From Candidatus Cryptobacteroides sp. (GTDB lineage Bacteria; Bacteroidota; Bacteroidia; Bacteroidales; UBA932), in contig JBJEJV010000043.1 in the NCBI GenBank assembly GCA_051878295.1, positions 10,022-74,021 on the forward strand: DNA of 64,000 nucleotides, given 5' to 3'. Below, in pieces: positions 2,441-12,180 of the stretch. Both the position numbers and the translations under genes were made by a program. The stretch's first letter is position 1. Every line of letters begins with the position of its first letter. The notes under the pieces are model-generated. The model saw only the letters and a program-made list of their open reading frames with translations, searched no databases and was not told the origin of the DNA.

Positions 2441-3352
2441 TTATATTGCATCCAAAACTGCCTTCGCTGCACGGGTATTGATTCCGTGTCCGGGCTTGTA
2501 GGCGGTGACCTTTGCGGCGAGGGTTCCTCCGCACAGCATCAGGTCGCCTATCATATCCATCATCTTGTGCCTTCCGCACTCGTTCGGGAACCTCAAGGTG
2601 AGATTGTTGAGATAGCCGCCCTCGTTTACGGAAAGTTCCGGAACATTGAACAGCACCGAGAGTCTCTTGAGCTGTTCGCCGGAAACCGGATGTTCGACGA
2701 TTACAATCGCGTTGTCCACGTCTCCTCCCCTTACAAGGTTGTTCTGGAACAGGAATTCGATTTCATGGAAAAACACGAATGTCCTGCACGGACCGAGTTC
2801 CCCAGCAAAGTCAGTGCCAGAATCCCAGTGGGCGGTCTGTACACCGAGGACTTTGGAACCGAAATCCACAGTTATGTCGAAGGAAGGAGCGTCCGCAGGG
2901 CTTATCCTGATCCACGAACCGGACTTCTCGTCCGAAACGAGGATTTCCTCAGGCACTCTGACATATTCCTTGTCGGCATCCTGGACCGCGAGGCCGTCTT
3001 TCGCGAATGCCTCCACGTAGGCCCTGGCGCTTCCGTCCAGAATAGGGACTTCCACATTGTCAATGTCCACGAAGGCATTGTCAACTCCCATTCCGCAGAA
3101 TGCCGACATAAGGTGTTCGATGGTGGAGACGGAGACATCCCCGCAGCTTAGCGTTGTGCTCCGGGCAGTGGATGAGACGTTGGAAGCGAGAGCCTTGACC
3201 GAGGCGCCTTCGCCGAGATCCGTTCTCCTGAACACGATGCCCGTACCTGCGGGTGCAGGTTTGACCGTCATGTGCGAGTAGTTACCGGTATGGAGTCCTT
3301 TACCTTCAAAAAGATGTTCGGAAGACAGAGTCTTCTGTTTGATCGAAGTCAT
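2441..3352 (-). CDS. lpxC: UDP-3-O-acyl-N-acetylglucosamine deacetylase (LpxC domain only, no FabZ fusion)
   Basis: KQKTL, GKGLHTG, STIEHLMSA zinc motif, PILDGSA, RHKMMDMIGDL, PGHGIN; start placed at ATG 3352 (MTSIKQ) below a TAnnTTTG promoter. Confidence 0.95.
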   Translation of the reverse strand: MTSIKQKTLSSEHLFEGKGLHTGNYSHMTVKPAPAGTGIVFRRTDLGEGASVKALASNVSSTARSTTLSCGDVSVSTIEHLMSAFCGMGVDNAFVDIDNVEVPILDGSARAYVEAFAKDGLAVQDADKEYVRVPEEILVSDEKSGSWIRISPADAPSFDITVDFGSKVLGVQTAHWDSGTDFAGELGPCRTFVFFHEIEFLFQNNLVRGGDVDNAIVIVEHPVSGEQLKRLSVLFNVPELSVNEGGYLNNLTLRFPNECGRHKMMDMIGDLMLCGGTLAAKVTAYKPGHGINTRAAKAVLDAI

Positions 3353-3388
3353 AGCTATTGTTGGCTGCATCATTTTTAATGCAGTCTG

Positions 3389-3396
3389 CAAAGATA
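3389..3396 (-). promoter_or_regulatory. Bacteroidota sigma-A -7 element for lpxC-lpxA-wbqC
   Basis: TATCTTTG on minus strand matches TAnnTTTG, 36 nt upstream of the lpxC ATG. Confidence 0.65.
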
Positions 3397-3490
3397 TGTA
3401 TTAAATTGATTAATAGCAAAAGTACCTGAAGCAATTCCTTCCGTCCCAGCCCGGCGGAGTCCCCTGCTGCCGGAATGAAGAGGGGCGCCG

Positions 3491-4414
3491 TCATTTCTGT
3501 TCCGCATCGACAAGGTTGTTCAGGATGGCATAGGCGGTAAGGCCTGCAATGGTCCTGATTCCGGTCTTGCGGGCTATATTCTTCCTGTGGGAGATGACGG
3601 TGTGGATGGAAATGTTGTACTTGGAGGCGATTTCCTTGTTGAGGAGGCCCTGGGCGACACCTTTGAGAATCTCCACCTCGCGCGTGGAGAGCTTGTCCGA
3701 GGAATCGGAGGATTCCGCCACGCCTGCATCCTCCAGATGGTTCACGGCCGGAATCAGGATTCTGTCCTCGATGATGGTGTGCTTCAAGAGGTCCTTCTCC
3801 AGGCTGAATATCCCGGAGAGGGCGGAGCGTATCAGACTCTGGTCGCACTGGGCCGGGAGATAGGTCATTATCAGTTTCTTCAGCTCGTCCAGCTTTTCCT
3901 GCACGTCAGAGTGGTGCTGCTCATATTCGAGTATGGAGAAGTCATCCTGTGCGCCCTTGTCGAGCATCGCCTCGACATAGGGGAATACGACCGACTCTTC
4001 GTAGGCGAAGTGCCGCGACAGTTCCTGCGTGTAGTCGGAGAAGAATCTGGAGATTATCATCTTGTGGGTGTCTCCGCAGGGAGACAGCAGGGCGTCGAGG
4101 GAGAGGGAGAGGGATTTGACGGCAGTGTTCTCATAATAGCTGTGGGAACGGCGGAGATAGCGCAGCACATCCCTGAGGTCTATCTTGTCCAGGAGTTCCC
4201 TGGACGGAGTGTAGTCTTCGTACAGATACACATTGCAGATCAGGAGGAAACTTGCGGTGTTCACCCCCGCGGCCGAACAGACTTTGTCAACCGTCTTGTC
4301 TCCAAAACCGTAAGAGAGCCCTATCCTCTCCAGAACACCCGAGAGGGTGAAATCCCGGTCCATCAGATCCGACATTTTCATTTCAGGTGTCAACGCTTCC
4401 CAGTTTCGCATCAT
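3491..4414 (-). CDS. Hemerythrin/RIC-like domain fused to C-terminal LuxR-type HTH transcriptional regulator
   Basis: ScdA_N-like N-terminus (MKMSDLM...GDKTVDKVC), His/Glu motifs HSYY, HFAYEE, HHSDVQE, HTIIED; C-terminal LSTREVEILKGVAQGLLNKEIA...ISIHTVISHRKNI. Confidence 0.9.
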   Translation of the reverse strand: MMRNWEALTPEMKMSDLMDRDFTLSGVLERIGLSYGFGDKTVDKVCSAAGVNTASFLLICNVYLYEDYTPSRELLDKIDLRDVLRYLRRSHSYYENTAVKSLSLSLDALLSPCGDTHKMIISRFFSDYTQELSRHFAYEESVVFPYVEAMLDKGAQDDFSILEYEQHHSDVQEKLDELKKLIMTYLPAQCDQSLIRSALSGIFSLEKDLLKHTIIEDRILIPAVNHLEDAGVAESSDSSDKLSTREVEILKGVAQGLLNKEIASKYNISIHTVISHRKNIARKTGIRTIAGLTAYAILNNLVDAEQK

Positions 4415-4434
4415 ATTCTTGGTTTTTCCAAGTG

Positions 4435-4442
4435 CAAAGTTA
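4435..4442 (-). promoter_or_regulatory. -7 promoter element for the hemerythrin-LuxR regulator
   Basis: TAACTTTG on minus strand, 20 nt before the ATG at 4414. Confidence 0.65.
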
Positions 4443-4554
4443 ATGATTCTGACGATTCGGCGCATCCCCATTTATGGTGAGTCCGCTCCCCCGATGGCCG
4501 TTTTCCGGGAATATTTCCCACCATTTTGGGATTGCCGAGGACTCTTATGAGGCG

Positions 4555-4562
4555 TAATTTTG
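4555..4562 (+). promoter_or_regulatory. -7 promoter element for the porin-imelysin-diheme-ccsBA operon
   Basis: TAATTTTG, 24 nt before the ATG at 4587. Confidence 0.65.
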
Positions 4563-4586
4563 CAAAGTTTTTCAATGAAATGCACT

Positions 4587-5858
4587 ATGAAATCCAGACT
4601 CATCCTGATAGCGTCATTCCTGTTCATCTGCTTCGCCGCGAATGCCCAGCAGGCTAAAGAAGGCCGCCTTACCATCGGCGGTTACGGAGAGGTGGCGCTG
4701 ACCCGCAATTTCTACAGCGACAATGTTTACCGATACTCATCCGCGTCCTCCCACACCGGAGAGCAGCACGGACGCTTCGACATCCCGCACTCTGTCATCT
4801 ACCTCGGCTATGACTTCGGAAAAGGCTGGACGATGCAGACGGAAATCGAGTTCGAGCACACGGGTACGGGCAGTGCCGTGGAAAAGGAGTTCGAGGAAGC
4901 CGGAGAATGGGAGTCCGAAACCGAAAGGGGCGGAGAAGTGGAGCTGGAGCAGTTCTGGCTGCAGAAGAGCTTCTGCCGGGAGTTCAACATAAGAATGGGG
5001 CACATAGTCGTCCCTGTGGGCGGACTGAACAATGCGCACGAGCCGCTGAACTTCTTCACTGTTTACCGTCCGGAAGGAGAATACAACATCCTGCCGAGCA
5101 CCTGGCACGACACGGGAATCAGCCTTTGGGGCAGAACCGCGCACTGGCGCTACGAGGCGATGGTCGTGGCGGGACTTGACGCCTATATGTTCAGCACGGA
5201 GAATTTCATCAAGGACGGAGCGGGTTCTCCCTTCGAGTTCAAGGTCGCCAACCAGCTCGGATTCGCCGCACGCATAGACAATTACTCAGTAAAGAATCTG
5301 AGAATGTCCCTGAGCGCTTACTACGGAAGGTCCTTCAACAACACCTACCCCTACGAGGTGATTTCCGAGGAATCCCGTTATTACGGAGTGGTCGGGCGCA
5401 CCGCAGTCGGAGCCTTTGATTTCGCCTACACCGGAAAGCGTTTCATAGCCAGGGGCAATCTGGATTATGGATATGTCGGCGACGCGGCCCTCATCAGCAC
5501 GATGAAGCGCAACCGCAGCGCGAACAACGCCCCGTACGAAAAATCGGCCGTGGGCAAGGGTGCCTTCGCGGCCGGCGTCGAAGCCGGCTACGACCTGCTG
5601 TCCCTGTTCCGCCAGAAGGAAGACGAGAAACTGTTCCTGTTCGGCAGGTACGAATATTACAACTCATACATCCCGGACACGGGACAGGAGGCTGCCGAGT
5701 GGACGGCCAAGCACAGGATCGCCGTGGGTGTCAACTACTACCCCCTGCCCCAGATTGCAGTGAAGGCGGAATATTCGCACCGCTTCCTCAAGACCGGCTA
5801 CAACCCGGAGCCATCCATAAGCCTCGGCATTTGCTATATGGCCTTCTTCAAGAAATAA
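4587..5858 (+). CDS. Outer membrane porin-like beta-barrel associated with imelysin loci
   Basis: Sec signal ending ANA-QQ, TIGGYGE, FEIEFEH...GGEVELEQFW, HEPLNFFTVYRP..E..ILPSTWH, terminal aromatic residues. Confidence 0.8.
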   Translation: MKSRLILIASFLFICFAANAQQAKEGRLTIGGYGEVALTRNFYSDNVYRYSSASSHTGEQHGRFDIPHSVIYLGYDFGKGWTMQTEIEFEHTGTGSAVEKEFEEAGEWESETERGGEVELEQFWLQKSFCREFNIRMGHIVVPVGGLNNAHEPLNFFTVYRPEGEYNILPSTWHDTGISLWGRTAHWRYEAMVVAGLDAYMFSTENFIKDGAGSPFEFKVANQLGFAARIDNYSVKNLRMSLSAYYGRSFNNTYPYEVISEESRYYGVVGRTAVGAFDFAYTGKRFIARGNLDYGYVGDAALISTMKRNRSANNAPYEKSAVGKGAFAAGVEAGYDLLSLFRQKEDEKLFLFGRYEYYNSYIPDTGQEAAEWTAKHRIAVGVNYYPLPQIAVKAEYSHRFLKTGYNPEPSISLGICYMAFFKK

Positions 5859-5879
5859 TCAATCAAAACAGCAACGATA

Positions 5880-7094
5880 ATGAAAAAGTATCAAATCCTT
5901 CTTCTGGCGACGGCCTTCATCCTGAGCGCAGCATCCTGCGAGAAGACCCCCGCTCCAGATACGGACAGCGAGCAGGACAGAGCCCTGCAGGCCGCTGTGG
6001 AACAGTATGTACCCCAGGTAATCTACAATATCTACGGCAATCTTGCCGATGCTTCGGAATCCCTGTACAATCAGCTTACGGAATTGAAGGCCTGCAGCAG
6101 CTACAGCCAGTCCCAGATAGACCAGGTTTGCGCCACCTTCCTGGAGGCACGCAGATGGTGGGAACTCAGCGAGGCCTTCCTCTACGGTGCGGCGACTGCG
6201 TATGGCATCGACGCCCACATCGATTCCTGGCCGCTGGACAAGGACAAGCTCGCAAAGAGTCTGTCCAATGCCGAGACCATCGCCGACCTCGACGCTGAAG
6301 GTGCCGGAGCCGTCGATGAGGTGGGAGCCGCTTCTTTGGGCTTCCACGGAATAGAATTCATCATATTCAGAGGCGGTAAGAACCGCTCTGCGGAAGCCCT
6401 CAACGGAATGGAAGACGACGATGCCTTCTCCGGCCGCAATGTGAGCGGAAAGAGTGAAATCATATTCGCCACCGCAGTGGCCGAAGACCTCCGCAACTAC
6501 TGCTTCGAGCTTCAGGCCTCCTGGGACCCGGACTGCCCGCAGGAGCGCGTGGAACTGGTTGAAGACCTGGAACTCAACACCACAATGGACAGCGGACTGA
6601 CTTACGGCGAGAATCTGCTCCGGACCGGCAATGCCGGCAGCACCTACCGCAGCTGGCCGGAAGCCGTTTCAAGCATCCTCGTGGCAGGCTGCTCCAACAT
6701 CAGCAACGAGGTGGCGAACACCAAAATCGGCACCGCCCACTATGTCAGCAGTTCGAACTATGATCCGGACTACATCGAGTCCCCATATTCAAAGCAGTCC
6801 TACCAGGACTTCAAGGACAACATCCTCTCGATTCAGTACAGCCTCTACGGCGCCCTGAATGCCACTTCCGCCCGCAGCGCATCCATCGCCTCCTTCCTGA
6901 AAACCTACAGCTGGCCGAAGGCTGCCGAGCTGGAAAACGCTCTCCAGGCCTCAATCAAGGCTTTGGACGAGGCTATGGCGAAAGGGGCTTTCGTGGACAA
7001 CCCGACTTCTGCCGAAGCGGAGAACTGCATCACCAAAATCAATGCGCTGGACGCCCTTCTGAATGAGGCGGCAGACTGGATTTCAAAACTTTAA
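5880..7094 (+). CDS. Imelysin-family (peptidase M75 / IrpA / EfeO-like) lipoprotein, putative iron-binding
   Basis: Lipobox AASC; WELSEAFLYG, HIDSWPLD, GFHGIEF (GxHxxE metal motif), EVANTKIG, IESPYS. Confidence 0.9.
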   Translation: MKKYQILLLATAFILSAASCEKTPAPDTDSEQDRALQAAVEQYVPQVIYNIYGNLADASESLYNQLTELKACSSYSQSQIDQVCATFLEARRWWELSEAFLYGAATAYGIDAHIDSWPLDKDKLAKSLSNAETIADLDAEGAGAVDEVGAASLGFHGIEFIIFRGGKNRSAEALNGMEDDDAFSGRNVSGKSEIIFATAVAEDLRNYCFELQASWDPDCPQERVELVEDLELNTTMDSGLTYGENLLRTGNAGSTYRSWPEAVSSILVAGCSNISNEVANTKIGTAHYVSSSNYDPDYIESPYSKQSYQDFKDNILSIQYSLYGALNATSARSASIASFLKTYSWPKAAELENALQASIKALDEAMAKGAFVDNPTSAEAENCITKINALDALLNEAADWISKL

Positions 7095-7099
7095 GCTCA

Positions 7100-8872
7100 A
7101 TGAACACAAAAATGTTTCTCTTTGCCGCAGCCGCCGTCGTTTTGGCTGCGGCCGCCTGCGAAAACAACGAGGAGGCGCCGCTTGCCGTCATTGAATCAGA
7201 TGCCAAGTATGTAGGCCAGGCAGTAGGCAACTTCTCGGCGGAAGAATGGTATCCCGGAGGTCTTCTGGGCACCACCGACAATGTGACGGAAGGCTGCTAT
7301 GAAGACGAGGCACCGGCAGTGGAAGAGCAGGGTCTTCTCACCCAGTTCAACCACGGGGAGATGTTCTTCGAGCGCAATTTCACCCTGAATTCGGCTCCGT
7401 TCAAGGGACTCGGACCGGCCTCAGTGCGCAAATCCTGCCTGGACTGCCATCCGGCATACGGCCACGGCAAATGGCAAAGCAGCTATGAAGCCAACACGGC
7501 CCGCGCTTTCGGCAACGGCTACCTGCTGGTGGTCTATTATGCCGAAGAGCCGGGGAGCAACGACGGAAGCTATGTTTCGGAAGTGACGGGAATGCCGCAG
7601 ACAATGGCTGCGGAGCCTTTCCTCCCTCCTATCGATGAGAAAGGAATCTCGCTGTCCTGGATTCCGGTAAGGGAAATGGAAAGCGGATTGCCGATGCAGT
7701 TCCCGGACGGAGAATCCTACAGCCTCCAGTACCCTGAGCTGACCATAGCCAGGGAGGCTTTCAACACCGACCCCAATCCTTATGAAACCGCCCAGCAGAA
7801 AGGCCTCACGATGGGTTTCCGCCTGGAATCCACCATCGGAGTGATCGGAGCCGGGCTGATAGATGCCATTCCTGACGACGCCCTGCGCGAGCAGTACCGG
7901 GCAGAAGCCCCTTATGTGGAACTGAATCCGTCCTTCTGGGACAAGGGCAGGAATGACTTCGCCGAGACTGCCTACTACTCCAACTGGCAGGCCGGAGAGA
8001 ACGGAGCGGGAATCCTTGCCGACGGGACCCGGGTGGCCCGCGGAGAGTTCAAGCCCGTCAAGCGATACACCTATGCTTTGACCAGAGGCTCCTTGCAGGA
8101 CGGTGCTGGAGCCAATGCAATATGGAACATTACGAACGTAACCCGTCCGGACCGTCCTTACCTGTACACCACGGTGGCTTGGGCGAAGAAAATGAGTGAG
8201 ACGCCATCAGTGATTGCAGCCATACGTGCCGAAAAAGAGGCTTCGCCTTACTACGTGGATGTGAACAAGGACGGTACGGTTACGGACGAGGAAATATCCG
8301 AGGCGGTTCTGGCTCTCCTGAGCCCGACCACCAACCAGTTCGACAATCCTTACCACAACTTTGAAGCGGAGATGAGCGCCGACCAGTTCTACGACTTTAT
8401 GGTCTGGCACCGCGGACTTTCCATTCCGAGGGCCCGCAACCTGCACGAGAAAGACGTGCAGAGGGGCAAGGAGCTCTTCATCGAAATGGGCTGCGCGACC
8501 TGCCACAAGCCATCCTGGAAAACCGGCGACGACAACTACTGGAGCCCTGCCATGAACGAAGGCAAGCCGCTTCCGCGCTACGCCAACCAGACAATCTGGC
8601 CATATTCAGACTTCATCCAGCACCGCCTGTACATGAAGAACGACATCCACGGCACCTGGTGCAGGACCACCCCGCTTTGGGGACGCGGTCTTTCATCCCA
8701 GAACACCGGAGCCTCCGACAGGCTTCACGACTGCAGGGCCCGGACCGTGGTGGAGGCCATAATGTGGCACGCCTATTCCAAGAAGAGCGACGCCTATTCC
8801 TCAGGGGAGAAGTTCTACAACCTCTCCAAGGAGGACCGCGACGCCGTGGTGAGATTCATCGATTCAATCTGA
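7100..8872 (+). CDS. Di-heme oxidoreductase (DHOR/DUF1111-like) c-type cytochrome lipoprotein
   Basis: Lipobox AAAC; two CxxCH motifs (CLDCH 7436-7450, CATCH 8492-8506); GLGP...SC, IGAGLIDAIPD, WRT-like RTTPLWGRG, LHDCRART..EAIMWH. Confidence 0.9.
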   Translation: MNTKMFLFAAAAVVLAAAACENNEEAPLAVIESDAKYVGQAVGNFSAEEWYPGGLLGTTDNVTEGCYEDEAPAVEEQGLLTQFNHGEMFFERNFTLNSAPFKGLGPASVRKSCLDCHPAYGHGKWQSSYEANTARAFGNGYLLVVYYAEEPGSNDGSYVSEVTGMPQTMAAEPFLPPIDEKGISLSWIPVREMESGLPMQFPDGESYSLQYPELTIAREAFNTDPNPYETAQQKGLTMGFRLESTIGVIGAGLIDAIPDDALREQYRAEAPYVELNPSFWDKGRNDFAETAYYSNWQAGENGAGILADGTRVARGEFKPVKRYTYALTRGSLQDGAGANAIWNITNVTRPDRPYLYTTVAWAKKMSETPSVIAAIRAEKEASPYYVDVNKDGTVTDEEISEAVLALLSPTTNQFDNPYHNFEAEMSADQFYDFMVWHRGLSIPRARNLHEKDVQRGKELFIEMGCATCHKPSWKTGDDNYWSPAMNEGKPLPRYANQTIWPYSDFIQHRLYMKNDIHGTWCRTTPLWGRGLSSQNTGASDRLHDCRARTVVEAIMWHAYSKKSDAYSSGEKFYNLSKEDRDAVVRFIDSI

Positions 8873-8921
8873 GCGGGGGGGGACTGTCCTCCCTCATCCT
8901 GCCCCAGTATTTCCGGAGAAA

Positions 8922-11009
8922 GTGAAGAATCTTCCCAAATATCTCAGTTTCGGCACGCTCGCCCTCCTTGTGGCAATGATGATGGCGGCTACCGTGATTG
9001 AAAAGGCCGAAGGGTCTCCGGCGGCATTTTCCGCCGTCTATCACCACCCGCTGTTCATCCTCCTGTGGTCGGTGGCCGCAATCAGCGGCATCGTCTGGCT
9101 TTGCAGGAGGGGCGTGGTGCGGAAATCCTTCACTTTTTCCCTTCACCTGTCCTTCGTCCTGATTCTGGCCGGAGCTCTGACGACTTTCCTCTGCGGGGAG
9201 AAAGGGAGCATCCATCTGAGGGTCGGCGAGCAGGGCGACAGCATCGTCCTGGAAGGAGGAGGGACGAAATCCCTGCCTTTCAGCCTGAGACTGGATGAAT
9301 ATGCGGTTGAGTGCTACCCGGGGTCCAAAGCGGCTGCCGATTACAGAAGCACAGTGACGGTCCTCCCCGAGGGGACGGAGCACTGCATTTCAATGAACCA
9401 TATTCTCCGCCACAAGGGCTACCGTTTCTACCAGGCGGACTTTGACGAGGACCTCGGAGGCAGCACCCTCGCCGTGAGCCACGACCCCTGGGGCATTGCG
9501 GTCACCTACACGGGCTATGTGCTGCTCCTGCTCTCCATTCTGGGCTTCTTCTTCCAGAAAGGGACGGCCTACCGTGCAGCCCTTGAGCGTCTTGCGCCCG
9601 TGGCCGTCATCCTGGCTGGGCTGACCGTTCCGACAAGCCTGGATGCCAGGAACCTCAGGTGCGAAAGGCCGGAAGTGTTGCCGGAGGAGGTCGCGGAAGC
9701 ATTCGGGGATTTGTACGTCTATTACAATGAACGCGTCTGTCCCCTCTCCACCCTCAACCGCAGCTATTGCCTGAAAGCCTACGGCAAGGCCGGTCCTTTC
9801 GGTTTCACCGCCGACCAGACTGTCAGCGGCTGGCTGTTCTACTATGACTGGTGGCGGGTGGTCCCCTTCAAGGTCAAGGCCAAGGACAGAGGGACGGCCC
9901 GGGAAGATGAACTGGAGTACCTCCAGCGTTCCGCCGCCTCGGGAGATGCCTTCAAGATATTCCCGATAAGGTCTTCCGACGGGACTGTCTCCTGGTACGG
10001 CTGCAACGACCCGCTGCCGGAAGAGGTGACGGACAACTACGACCTGTGGGTGTTCGTGCGGAAAGCCCTCGACCTGGTGGACGAGTCGGTCAGGCAGGAG
10101 GACTGGGATGAGGTGCTGCGCCTGGTCGGGAAGATAAAGGCCTATCAGGAGAAGACGGCGGCAGAGGTCCTGCCTTCCGCACTGAAGGTGAAGGCCGAAA
10201 GACTCTACAACAGCATTTCGAGGCCGATGATTCCATTCATGTCGTCGATAACTATAGGAATCATCCTTTTCATCCTCTGCGGAGCCCTGATGGCCAGGGG
10301 GAAAAGGCTGCCCTCACCCGTTCAGCACGTCACGGCATGCCTGACGGCCCTGCTCTGGTGTTACCTGACACTCGTGCTGGGCCTCCGCTGGTTCGTGTCC
10401 GGGCATGCACCCTTCTCCGGCAGCTACTGCGTGATGATGCTGATGGCCTGGCTGTCCTCGCTGAGTTCGCTGCTCCTGTACAGGAAATTCCCCCTGATAC
10501 TTCCGACCGGGCTCCTGCTGGCCGGGTTTACTATGCTGATGGCTTCCCTGGCCAGCGCCAGTCCGCAGATCACCCGGCTGATGCCGGTGCTCCAGAGCCC
10601 GCTGCTCAGCATACACGTGCTGAGTATGATGCTTTCCTACACTCTACTCGGATTGGTGGCCCTGTGCGGCATTCTCGGCCTGTGCATGCCGACCCAGGAC
10701 CAGGCCGCGAAATTGAAGGACCTTTCGACGACGGTGCTATGCCCCGCAGTCTTCCTGCTCGCTTTCGGGACCTTTCTCGGGGCCGTCTGGGCCAACATTT
10801 CGTGGGGCAGTTACTGGGGCTGGGACCCAAAGGAGACCTGGGCGCTGGTCACCCTGCTCGTATATTCATTCGCCCTGCACGGCGGCAGCCTGGAAATATT
10901 CCGCCGGCCGAAGTTCTTCCACGCCTACTGCATCATCGCCTTCCTTTCGGTTCTTGTCACCTACTTCGGTGTGAACCTCATTTTGGGAGGGATGCACTCT
11001 TATGCCTGA
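8922..11009 (+). CDS. ccsA: Fused cytochrome c biogenesis protein CcsBA (System II, ResB+ResC)
   Basis: GTG start; HLSFVLILAG, YRFYQA, HDPWG, HVLSMMLSY, tryptophan-rich WANISWGSYWGWDPKETW, terminal GMHSYA. Confidence 0.92.
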   Translation: MKNLPKYLSFGTLALLVAMMMAATVIEKAEGSPAAFSAVYHHPLFILLWSVAAISGIVWLCRRGVVRKSFTFSLHLSFVLILAGALTTFLCGEKGSIHLRVGEQGDSIVLEGGGTKSLPFSLRLDEYAVECYPGSKAAADYRSTVTVLPEGTEHCISMNHILRHKGYRFYQADFDEDLGGSTLAVSHDPWGIAVTYTGYVLLLLSILGFFFQKGTAYRAALERLAPVAVILAGLTVPTSLDARNLRCERPEVLPEEVAEAFGDLYVYYNERVCPLSTLNRSYCLKAYGKAGPFGFTADQTVSGWLFYYDWWRVVPFKVKAKDRGTAREDELEYLQRSAASGDAFKIFPIRSSDGTVSWYGCNDPLPEEVTDNYDLWVFVRKALDLVDESVRQEDWDEVLRLVGKIKAYQEKTAAEVLPSALKVKAERLYNSISRPMIPFMSSITIGIILFILCGALMARGKRLPSPVQHVTACLTALLWCYLTLVLGLRWFVSGHAPFSGSYCVMMLMAWLSSLSSLLLYRKFPLILPTGLLLAGFTMLMASLASASPQITRLMPVLQSPLLSIHVLSMMLSYTLLGLVALCGILGLCMPTQDQAAKLKDLSTTVLCPAVFLLAFGTFLGAVWANISWGSYWGWDPKETWALVTLLVYSFALHGGSLEIFRRPKFFHAYCIIAFLSVLVTYFGVNLILGGMHSYA

Positions 11010-11030
11010 GCAAGGCGGGAGGGAAAGGGG

Positions 11031-12017
11031 CTACTGCCCCTGTTTCTTGAATATGGCGTAGCTCCGCAGATAATTCTTAAGAGGGATGGCCGGCGAGCCC
11101 ATCAGGACCTGTCCCTCGGTCTTTATGCTGCTGATGACTCCCGACTGGGCGGCGATGGTGGTGTTGTCCGGGATGGTGATATGTCCGACGATTCCGACCT
11201 GGCCGGCTATGACGCAGTTCTTGCCGATTTTCGCCGAGCCGGCGATTCCGGTCATCGCGGCCATCACCGTGTTGTCGCCGATGACCACATTGTGGGCAAT
11301 CTGGCAGAGGTTGTCGATTTTGACCCCGTTCCCGATGATGGTGGATTCCATCTCGGACTTGTCGATGGTGGTGCCGGCGCCGATTTCGACGTTGTCGCCG
11401 ATGATGACGTTGCCGATGTGCTCGATTTTCTCCCAGGTCCCGTCAGGAAGAGGGGCGTTGCCGAAGCCGTCGGAGCCGATGACCGCATTGGCGTGGATGA
11501 TCACGTTGTTGCCGATGACCATTCCGGGATAGATTACCACACCCGGATAGATTATGCAGTGGTCGCCGATTACGGTGTTGTCCCCGACATAGACATTTTC
11601 GTAGATTTTGGTATAGTTGCCGATTCTGGCGTGGTGGCCGACATAGGAATGGCTGCCCAGATAGACCTTCTTGCCGAATTTGGAAGTCAGGAACCAGGAT
11701 GAGCGGAATCCCCTGTGCCTGCGGTCAGTCCGTTTCTGGACGGTGACATATTTCAGAAGGTCCGCCAAAGCCTTGTAGGCGTCGTCCACCCTTATCAGGG
11801 TTGAAGCGACCGGCTGCTTGGGCTGGAAATCCTTGTTGACCAGGAGAATGCTCGCCTTGCAGGTGTACACGTACTCTTCGTACTTGGGGTTGGCGAAAAA
11901 ACATAGTTGTTCGGGTTTGCCGTGCTCGATCTTGGCAAAAGAAGTAACTTTGGCTTGTGAATCTCCCTCCACTGTTCCTTTCAGTATCTGAGCCAATTGT
12001 TTAGCAGTAAATTCCAT
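11031..12017 (-). CDS. lpxD: UDP-3-O-(3-hydroxyacyl)glucosamine N-acyltransferase
   Basis: [49 protein letters not shown]; start at ATG 12017. Confidence 0.97.
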
Positions 12018-12180
12018 CTTGATTGTCTGTCTGGCTATGTTATTTGTCTGATGCGGAAAAATCCGGGGCACCGGTATTCCAAATGCCGGTTTCCCTGAAA
12101 ACTTGCACGGGATACGTGCAAATATTCAGCCATCGCTTCGCAAAGAAAACAATAAATTTTCATTTACGCCAAAGTTTGCT

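Follow-up and report, generated by a model that had tools for sequence, protein, structure and literature searches.

A porin-imelysin-DHOR-CcsBA operon and its predicted hemerythrin-LuxR regulator in Candidatus Cryptobacteroides: a candidate iron-starvation module of the cell envelope

Five genes at positions 3491 to 11009 of a stretch of DNA from Candidatus Cryptobacteroides sp. (GenBank assembly GCA_051878295.1, contig JBJEJV010000043.1) are the subject of this article. The window, by which we mean the whole 64,000-nucleotide (nt) stretch that was analysed, carries a regulator gene on its minus strand and, divergent from it on the plus strand, genes for a porin, an imelysin, a di-haem cytochrome and a cytochrome c synthase. 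An earlier description made from the letters alone, the sequence-only reading hereafter, took them for a self-contained iron uptake system coupled to redox chemistry. The main new piece that we can add is a predicted operator, which connects the hemerythrin-LuxR regulator with the operon as well as with the gene that encodes it. The features of the locus are as follows.

3491-4471, minus strand: regulator gene, hemerythrin domain plus GerE/LuxR helix-turn-helix (HTH), from matches to PF01814 and PF00196
4435-4442, minus strand: -7 box of the regulator promoter, TAACTTTG, 20 nt upstream of the ATGATG at 4414-4409
4464-4482, no strand assigned: predicted operator O2, ATCCCCATTTATGGTGAGT, on the -33 region of the regulator promoter; position weight matrix (PWM) score 18.9
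4515-4534, no strand assigned: predicted operator O1, TTCCCACCATTTTGGGATTG, overlapping the -33 element of the operon promoter; PWM score 21.4
4555-4562, plus strand: -7 box of the operon promoter, TAATTTTG, a TAnnTTTG match
4560-5858, plus strand: porin open reading frame (ORF) of 432 amino acids (aa), likely start 4575 or 4587, from structure prediction
5880-7094, plus strand: imelysin (M75) lipoprotein, from PF09375
7100-8872, plus strand: DHOR/DUF1111 di-haem c-type cytochrome lipoprotein, from PF06537
8922-11009, plus strand: fused system II cytochrome c synthase CcsBA (ResB + CcsA), from PF05140 and PF01578
11026-11041, plus strand: terminator-like hairpin between the convergent ends of the CcsBA gene and lpxD, from a hairpin search

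What the sequence-only reading had described is there: the five ORFs, both TAnnTTTG boxes, gaps of 21, 5 and 49 nt between the plus-strand genes, the GFHGIE motif of the imelysin and the two CxxCH sites of the cytochrome. The profiles it had proposed as a check (PF09375, PF06537, PF01578 and PF05140) all found their match. Its ORF positions stand as well; its starts for the porin and the regulator do not. The porin starts at ATG 4575 or 4587, because TTG 4560 falls within the promoter, and the regulator most likely at M20 (position 4414), because its own promoter falls within the longest ORF. M20, which makes the regulator 307 aa long, also agrees with the N-termini of regulator homologues. 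TAnnTTTG occurs 29 times in the window against 12.1 +/- 3.8 expected, and the box just 5' of the porin gene is kept in nearly all related loci. No terminator-like hairpin was found on the plus strand within the operon; the one at 11026-11041 lies 3' of the CcsBA stop.

The regulator matches the hemerythrin profile PF01814 over residues 137-242 (5.7e-11) and the GerE profile PF00196 over residues 260-314 (2.2e-14), and its PDB matches are the C-terminal domain of YtfE and LuxR-type HTHs. Against TIGR03652, the model for RIC, it aligns over profile positions 6-215 of 216 and scores 59 bits, far under the cut-off of 204.7, and we rejected it as a RIC equivalog. H110, H154, E158, H187, H231 and E235 are invariant among 13 regulator homologues; this His4Glu2 set is the ligand pattern of hemerythrin-like di-iron sites and aligns with YtfE. 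With the RIC/YtfE/ScdA proteins the regulator shares a ScdA_N-like N-terminus, a four-helix hemerythrin-like domain and the His4Glu2 pattern; it differs from them in adding a DNA-binding domain, and because of this domain we would call it a sensor rather than (or besides) a repair enzyme. By its domains it belongs to the fused hemerythrin-CdhR type, a ScdA_N/RIC-like, putatively di-iron domain joined to a LuxR/GerE HTH.

The porin ORF has no match in Pfam or NCBIfam, and a PDB search with its sequence returned nothing informative. Its AlphaFold2 model, made from 35 orthologues, is a 16-strand barrel with a mean predicted local distance difference test (pLDDT) score of 72 and a predicted template-modelling (TM) score of 0.75. 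Foldseek pairs the model with OmpF, Omp38, OmpK36 and PorB at probability 1.0 and TM scores of 0.55-0.67, the top matches OmpF, Omp38 and OmpK36 having E values of 1e-13 to 1e-11. A helix-bearing loop lies between strands 5 and 6, where an inward-folded L3 loop is expected, in so far as a model of pLDDT 72 can place it. The predicted structure supports the view that the 432-aa ORF is a dedicated, OmpF-like 16-strand outer-membrane porin; the label had been given with no support from hidden Markov models (HMMs), and its support comes from structure prediction and Foldseek. A signal peptide ending in FAANA precedes QQ. The family has more than 7,000 relatives, all nameless; a few that are 72-81% identical carry weak precomputed matches to PF07396 or PF13505, and the window's porin itself carries none. 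Two loops stand out: L2 is an invariant acidic hairpin, EKEFEEAGEWESETERGGEVELEQ, and L3, which is predicted to form the constriction, hardly varies and has many His and Glu residues (NAHEPLNFFTVYRPEGE..STWH). Together they suggest a pore selective for cations or metals.

Weaker porin paralogues turned up in three genomes without DHOR (G189:C2:26230-28740, G070:C35:27969-30368 and G087:C56:3188-5571), each less than 2 kb from a stand-alone hemerythrin/RIC-like gene. They cover only profile positions ~123-433 and have no acidic L2 region. The hemerythrin-CdhR system may commonly control a porin of this superfamily.

The imelysin is a member of its family, matching PF09375 over profile positions 3-286 of 288 (2e-32, 113.4 bits against a cut-off of 23.5) and, in the PDB, 3n8u, the B. 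ovatus protein PIBO (2.5e-28), and 4ecg (9e-15). Its topology is canonical and non-permuted. G154-F-H156-G-I-E159 is invariant among 29 orthologues, as are W94-E95-x-S97-E98, D111-x-H113-x-D115-S-W117-P118 and I299-E300-S-P-Y303-S. PF09375 is the sole domain match, with no cupredoxin domain on the protein. A lipobox (SAAS before an invariant C20) makes it a lipoprotein, and the residues after the lipid-modified Cys run C-EKTPA.

DHOR scores 108.4 bits against PF06537 (4.2e-31, cut-off 22), with only its C-terminal third aligning (334-498 of 499). Its haem sites, C113xxC116H117 and C465xxC468H469 (CLDCH and CATCH), are invariant, and all 98 of the homologues examined have two CxxCH motifs. It too has a lipobox, AAAA before an invariant Cys20 that is followed by ENNEE. 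Relatives are named 'CxxC motif-containing protein (DUF1111 family)' at source. PDB sequence searches, by single sequence and by profile, returned no informative match, and DHOR has no relative of solved structure. Foldseek with the AlphaFold2 model (pLDDT 81.5) found bacterial di-haem peroxidases as its best matches, all below threshold (E 0.07-1, TM <0.3). PF03150 (CCP_MauG) does not match DHOR, and hhalign of its profile against the genome's own cytochrome c peroxidase (CcP) gives a probability of 19%. The C-terminal TPLWGRGL...RLHD of DHOR does parallel TPSLRNV...YHDG of that CcP. DHOR is at most a remote relative of the bacterial CcP (bCcP)/MauG superfamily.

Prevotella-type loci often carry DHOR in tandem, duplicated in L032, L040, L044, L047, L060, L062, L068-L070 and L076-L079 and triplicated in L071 and L074; the tandem paralogues are 47-52% identical to the window's DHOR and all have two CxxCH motifs. 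The Prevotella orthologues of both imelysin and DHOR have acidic export signals after the lipid-modified Cys (C-SDDD.. and C-TDED..), where the window's DHOR has C-ENNEE. From these signals, surface exposure of the two lipoproteins appears likely in some clades and uncertain in the window.

CcsBA matches PF05140 over residues 62-176 (6e-20) and PF01578 over residues 502-692 (3.8e-32); the WWD motif WGSYWGWD and WGSYWGWDPKETW are present, and its score against TIGR03144 is 133.6, under the cut-off of 187.6. A CcsBA gene lies 3' of DHOR in 70 of the 72 loci with enough sequence, in a long form of ~695 aa or a short form without residues ~220-550, that is, without the large periplasmic region and neighbouring helices. 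About eight loci have the short form, among them L001, L015, L016, L017, L020, L023 and L064, and it occurs even among close relatives of the window's genome. An apparent absence of CcsBA from ~10 loci was rejected as a coverage-filter artefact, those loci carrying the short form. The module's CcsBA is the third such system in the genome. Its paralogues on C12 and C21 are split ResB/CcsA pairs (C12:9247-12496 and C21:64479-66394), one adjoining a tri-haem peroxidase (Haem_bd + CCP_MauG) and the other, which no cytochrome gene adjoins, in the vicinity of FeoB and a LysR regulator. It seems that every cytochrome c locus in the genome has its own synthase.

A scan with the DHOR protein, one genome per species, gave 80 loci from Cryptobacteroides-like rumen metagenome-assembled genomes (MAGs), Muribaculaceae, Prevotella/Segatella, Alloprevotella, Marseilla and one Bacteroidaceae MAG. 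Cultured carriers of the locus include Segatella bryantii DSM 11371 (L053), S. baroniae DSM 16972 (L058) and S. hominis (L067). In tblastn comparisons the order porin-imelysin-DHOR (one to three copies)-CcsBA holds wherever the contig is long enough, and it is common to at least five families. Of 201 genomes sampled evenly across the order, 17 have DHOR, and exactly these 17 have the full-length porin (E <= 1e-89), the two lying on one contig within 3 kb in 16 of them; another 24 genomes have only a weaker, partial relative of the porin. The conserved order and this 17-for-17 co-occurrence support the claim that porin, imelysin, DHOR and CcsBA are one functional unit. The expectation that all five genes would co-occur held for the four-gene core and went too far for the regulator, which is adjacent in about one-fifth of loci. 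Prevotella-like copies of the locus also appear in 'cleanbin' assemblies labelled Clostridia, Lachnospiraceae, Faecalibacterium prausnitzii, Escherichia coli, Bifidobacteriaceae and so on (L048, L052, L059, L060, L069-L071, L074-L080); these are almost certainly mis-binned contigs and not horizontal transfer.

The regulator is upstream and divergent in 12 of 65 loci and downstream, in either orientation, in two more; full-length relatives were found in Prevotella, Segatella and Alloprevotella loci. Of 15 operon genomes with no adjacent regulator, nine carry an intact fused gene elsewhere, three carry it in assembly fragments and three have a split pair of a hemerythrin gene and an HTH gene. 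Among the 201 randomly sampled genomes the fused form is present in only nine; many have the split pair or a hemerythrin protein that stands alone. The porin's upstream neighbours vary from locus to locus, and divergent ORFs of ~340-410 aa 5' of the porin, considered as diverged regulators, were rejected; they encode a PfkB kinase, Asd, an esterase, a CDF transporter, sigma-70 and the like. The tie between a di-iron sensor-regulator and the module, which had been proposed from the window, is upheld by adjacency in three arrangements, by phyletic co-occurrence and by a common operator.

The operator came from promoter alignment anchored on the -7 box; a repeat search did not report these imperfect palindromes. 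A ATCCCCAnnnnTGGGGAT-type palindrome sits at a fixed position on the operon's -33 region in ~55 of 60 aligned loci and ends in a -33-like TTG, 20 nt before TAnnTTTG. Its form varies between clades, being ATCCCCAnnnnTGGGGATTG in that of the window, ATCACCAnnnnTGGTGAT in a second one and TTACCnAttttTArGTATTG in Prevotella, and its half-sites covary: 4.9 of 7 positions are complementary, against 3.56 +/- 0.17 for halves paired across loci and a maximum of 4.19 in 2,000 shuffles, a signal that kinship among the loci inflates somewhat. Many loci have a second copy ~50 nt upstream. In the window the arrangement is symmetrical, each of the divergent promoters having one copy on its -33 region, O1 at 20 nt from the operon's -7 box and O2, which has the third-best PWM score in the 2 Mb genome, at 21 nt from the regulator's. 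The same clade-specific motif stands 5' of unlinked regulator genes in at least five of nine genomes, in three with the same spacing to the -7 box. Because one motif precedes both the operon and the unlinked regulator genes, we take the palindrome to be the regulator's operator, with the regulator autoregulated; both are predictions from promoter comparison.

Beyond O1 and O2, a PWM scan of the window's genome yielded one strong site, ATCACCATTTTATGGGATT at C3:199674-199692, whose score of 22.2 no other operator-like site away from the window's locus reaches. It is intergenic, beside a 100-N scaffold gap, and its target gene is not readable; the promoter of an unrelated-looking 716-aa secreted protein is ~100 nt away. 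Other matches lie inside genes or beside a tRNA and rpsP. A pattern search of four Prevotella/Bacteroidaceae genomes recovered the operon and regulator sites and added one TonB-dependent receptor: at L101 (G211:C23:2892-2909), in a Bacteroidaceae MAG, ATACCTATTTTTGCGTATTG stands 20 nt 5' of a TAATTTTG box ahead of a 1002-aa receptor, which its promoter makes a candidate extra member of the regulon. An unannotated 447-aa ORF from the same search was rejected as a porin paralogue, and the other remaining matches looked like chance. At L086 (G208:C63) the palindromic operator 5' of an unlinked regulator is replaced by at least three tandem units of ~22 nt, cacctgcgacactttgccctac.

The boundaries and neighbours of the module are as follows.

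1581-2393: lpxA, beside lpxC
2441-3391, minus strand: lpxC, one flank of the module
3392-11030, no strand assigned: the inserted five-gene module, full extent between lpxC and lpxD, from comparison with congeners
11031-12071, minus strand: lpxD, the other flank

Fourteen congeners have lpxD-lpxC-lpxA contiguous, with a ~100-nt spacer, as do members of other families; only in the window's genome is this lipid A operon split by a 7.6-kb block. Because the lpxD-lpxC spacer is uninterrupted in the 14 congeners, the comparison shows that regulator and operon were inserted as one 7.6-kb unit. The lpxC promoter, TATCTTTGcagactgc, is kept on the lpxC side of the junction, and no mobility gene is visible at the inserted block. 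The window thus offers a minimal, naturally transplanted five-gene version of the system, which argues that the parts suffice as a unit.

Much of the background was in place already. Xu et al. (2011) solved imelysin-like structures, including that of PIBO from B. ovatus, reported that imelysins almost always adjoin a DUF1111 di-haem gene and described 'outer-membrane' imelysin clusters without EfeU, PA4370-73 with its Fur regulation being one; in Pseudomonas and Vibrio, imelysin-DUF1111 operons respond to Fur or iron (PMC3143127). In B. thetaiotaomicron, BT2473-82 (two CcsA genes, a porin, a 'thiol oxidoreductase', a peptidase M75, an HTH regulator and hypotheticals) goes up 63-324-fold when iron is low and is raised in colitis too, and nrfHA with its ccsBA goes down 30-36-fold in low iron (PMC10434189). 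The same study found a hemerythrin-domain protein and CdhR (PG1236-37, BT0519-20) to be low-iron induced in three Bacteroidota, the two being a single fused protein in P. intermedia (PMC10434189). PG1236 and CdhR are induced ~12-fold by nitric oxide (NO), cdhR mutants are NO-sensitive, and the DNA-binding mechanism of CdhR was left undefined (PMC11018363); iron binding by CdhR is yet to be shown in published work. A 2026 preprint presents the lipoprotein signal peptide of BT_2479 as a high-efficiency signal for secretion and surface display (10.64898/2026.05.12.724727).

The window's locus can be compared with each of these systems. BT2473-82 is like it in the porin BT2477, the DUF1111 'thiol oxidoreductase' BT2478, the M75/imelysin BT2479 and the CcsA genes (PMC10434189); it exceeds the window's minimal four-gene core by a fimbrillin-family gene, three hypotheticals and another HTH regulator, BT2482. 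The hemerythrin and CdhR genes of B. thetaiotaomicron are separate and elsewhere (BT0519-20), whereas the window's are fused and adjoining, and Bacteroides imelysins are circularly permuted (PMC3143127), whereas the window's is not. PA4370-4373 and VC1264-1267 also pair an imelysin lipoprotein with DUF1111, have no EfeU and are iron-regulated (PMC3143127). They have two imelysin-family genes (one with GxxxxE), a DUF1513 gene and Fur regulation, and neither porin nor CcsBA, in contrast to the window's one imelysin, dedicated porin, private CcsBA and hemerythrin-LuxR regulator. PG1236 with CdhR (PG1237), and PIN17_RS10465, likewise join a di-iron hemerythrin domain to a GerE/LuxR HTH, are low-iron induced (in P. 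gingivalis by NO too) and govern genes for iron or haem acquisition. The window's protein has the fused architecture of PIN17_RS10465, a likeness of architecture and not of alignment. The known targets of CdhR are hmuYR, mfa and luxS, with no operator defined, whereas the predicted target of the window's regulator is the operon, by way of the palindrome.

The sequence-only reading had called the locus an EfeUOB analogue. The resemblance is one of analogy only: EfeUOB/M also combines an M75 metal-binding protein with an extracytoplasmic haem enzyme and couples iron redox chemistry to uptake. The window's haem enzyme is a c-type di-haem DUF1111 protein and not the DyP b-haem protein EfeB, there is no cupredoxin domain, and imelysin and DHOR are diderm lipoproteins with a dedicated porin. 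EfeU/FTR1 (PF03239) is absent from the genome, which is 91% complete, and was detected in control genomes; none of the module's five proteins has a DyP domain, no genome-wide search for DyP having been made. Its novelty had been put too high: imelysin-DUF1111 operons were in print in 2011 (PMC3143127), and the locus of porin, CcsA, DUF1111 and M75 and the hemerythrin-LuxR (CdhR) regulator followed in 2023 as part of the iron stimulon (PMC10434189). We found no paper that links a CdhR-type regulator to a porin-imelysin-DHOR operon or defines its operator. Known before were the tie to iron, the set of parts and the family of the regulator; what is added is the link between operator and regulon, the strict coupling of porin and DHOR, and the five-gene transplant.

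We think it probable that the module is an iron-starvation-inducible envelope system for siderophore-independent iron acquisition. Well supported is its placement as an iron-starvation module under a di-iron-sensing LuxR regulator; every biochemical step within it we infer. The link to iron, as first proposed, gains from the 63-324-fold response of BT2473-82 and the low-iron induction of the hemerythrin/CdhR pair (PMC10434189). The regulator, most likely a dimer, would bind the two palindromic operators, one on the -33 region of each divergent promoter. With its di-iron site filled it would sit on O1 and O2 and repress both promoters in the manner of Fur. Should iron starvation empty the site, or NO or oxidants destroy it, the protein would be released and both regulator and operon would be induced. 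Between a holo-repressor and an activator we lean slightly to the repressor, because it explains why low iron and NO each induce the regulator together with its targets, and because symmetric palindromes over the -33 element suit repression.

From one promoter the cell would then make porin, imelysin, DHOR and CcsBA. Because the respiratory ccsBA of B. thetaiotaomicron is shut off in low iron, we propose that the private CcsBA matures DHOR while the respiratory cytochrome loci and their synthases are shut down. Metal would enter through the acidic porin. DHOR would carry out an iron redox step, most likely a peroxide- or oxidant-driven conversion of Fe2+ to Fe3+, less probably the reverse; the analogy with EfeB and EfeO is why we picture DHOR oxidising Fe2+ with peroxide for Fe3+ binding by the imelysin. 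The imelysin would bind the redox product, and an unlinked inner-membrane transporter would complete the uptake. The sequence-only reading had seen no inner-membrane permease in the cluster and had looked to FeoB elsewhere, and the genome does have FeoB and lacks FTR1.

Several points weigh against this account. It is drawn for the window's locus from sequence and from the literature on homologues. BT2475-79 is taken to be homologous at the level of families, going by annotations and by a control search that found a PF06537 gene in B. thetaiotaomicron and not by alignment. BT2478, the 'thiol oxidoreductase', we take to be DUF1111 by way of COG3488. The regulator does not adjoin the operon in ~80% of loci, and the fused regulator occurs without DHOR in 4-5 genomes and therefore has other targets. 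The PWM scan found no operator site near feoB in the window's genome, and beyond the operon and the regulator gene the TonB-dependent receptor of one genome is the only well-placed target. Whether the regulator represses or activates cannot be told from sequence, and for CdhR both roles have been reported, depending on which P. gingivalis strain was studied (PMC11018363). Besides Fe, M75 proteins take Cu and Zn (PMC9174327). No electron donor or acceptor for DHOR was identified, and a two-haem protein is costly to build when iron or haem is short.

A bolder version, which we regard as doubtful, makes the module a TonB-independent, redox-gated importer at the cell surface, its lipoproteins docking on a Glu/His-lined porin under a Fur-independent, FBXL5-like holo-repressor sensor. 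Surface-exposed DHOR and imelysin would hand iron to the porin after a haem-driven redox or protein-modification step, and the LuxR repressor would occupy its palindrome only with the di-iron site filled, and so would read iron starvation, NO and oxidants alike. The surface location is argued from the canonical acidic export signals of the Prevotella orthologues and from the surface display that the signal peptide of BT_2479 brings about.

MbnH converts a Trp of MbnP to kynurenine and builds a copper site in doing so. A maturation of this MauG/MbnH type, in which DHOR, rather than acting on iron, would use peroxide to modify a residue of the imelysin (or the porin) to make a site for iron or, for example, copper, strikes us as unlikely. 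In both cases a periplasmic di-haem c-type enzyme is encoded beside a metal-binding protein in a metal-acquisition operon; the window has PF06537 and not PF03150, an imelysin and not MbnP, and a porin where MbnH-MbnP has a TonB-dependent transporter. DHOR is a remote relative of bCcP/MauG at best, yet di-haem peroxidases are its sole Foldseek matches and its C-terminal motif parallels that of CcP. The imelysin always precedes it (by 5 nt in the window) and offers invariant W94, W117, W215, Y298 and Y303, and the copper and zinc binding of M75 proteins (PMC9174327) suits a site for other metals. Pulling the other way are the want of an MbnP-like gene, the lack of a PF03150 match and the 19% hhalign probability against CcP. 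The imelysin structures 3n8u and 4ecg were obtained without a DHOR-like partner and with no modification reported (PMC3143127), and the two or three tandem DHOR copies per single imelysin in Prevotella fit catalysis or electron transfer better than a one-off maturase.

Defence of the envelope against peroxide and NO would give the same parts another purpose: DHOR as a periplasmic peroxidase, the imelysin sequestering freed iron and the regulator sensing NO or H2O2 damage, with low-iron induction a side effect of the loss of the di-iron site. Pfam's own label for DHOR, 'putative peroxidase', and the RIC-like sensor domain speak for it, as do the NO induction of PG1236 and CdhR and the NO sensitivity of cdhR mutants (PMC11018363) and the rise of the B. 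thetaiotaomicron locus in colitis, where oxidative and nitrosative conditions prevail (PMC10434189). Detoxification does not readily account, however, for a dedicated porin whose acidic pore is lined with His and Glu, and a tri-haem CcP that has a ResB/CcsA to itself is already present in the genome. The 63-324-fold induction came from iron depletion alone, in anaerobic culture (PMC10434189), and relatives of the imelysin are tied to iron uptake in several phyla (PMC3143127). We consider defence an improbable main function.

Many Bacteroidales require exogenous haem, and the module could belong to a CdhR hemin regulon, serving uptake, processing or iron-stripping of haem or protoporphyrin rather than uptake of free iron. 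CdhR does control hmuYR hemin uptake in P. gingivalis (PMC11018363, PMC10434189), and the one extra operator-bearing promoter precedes a TonB-dependent receptor. This reading is very improbable to our minds: the module has no HmuY-like haem-binding protein, no CobN/HmuS-like chelatase and no TonB-dependent part, a 16-strand acidic porin suits small cations and not anionic tetrapyrroles, and the imelysin site is a carboxylate/His metal site (PMC9174327). Last, the idea that these are chance neighbours with no common function and accidental promoter and operator motifs, for which a porin outside any HMM family might be cited, is already refuted by the survey, with its gene order kept across at least five families, porin and DHOR together in 17 of 17 genomes, an operator at a fixed position with covarying half-sites, and a block inserted as a unit.

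Iron acquisition is the reading we favour. Imelysin-DUF1111 loci are among the strongest iron-starvation responses of gut and oral Bacteroidota and are widespread in Proteobacteria. The porin family is full-length only alongside DHOR in the 201-genome sample, and the acidic and His-rich loops that are invariant in it suggest a pore selective for metals. The holo-repressor model, if true, would give bacteria their own counterpart to iron sensing by hemerythrin domains.

Two smaller observations came out of the same genomes. C24:93969-95582 encodes a 537-aa protein of unusual architecture, a NapC/NirT-type tetra-haem membrane cytochrome (PF03264) fused to PF03781, the formylglycine-generating-enzyme/sulfatase-modifying-factor domain; no cytochrome synthase gene adjoins it. 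At the module's flank, lpxC retains its own TATCTTTG promoter. LpxC in this genus is a stand-alone protein of ~300 aa, with lpxA as the next gene; of the 464 positions in the bifunctional LpxC/FabZ model it covers only 3-298, and FabZ must therefore be encoded elsewhere.

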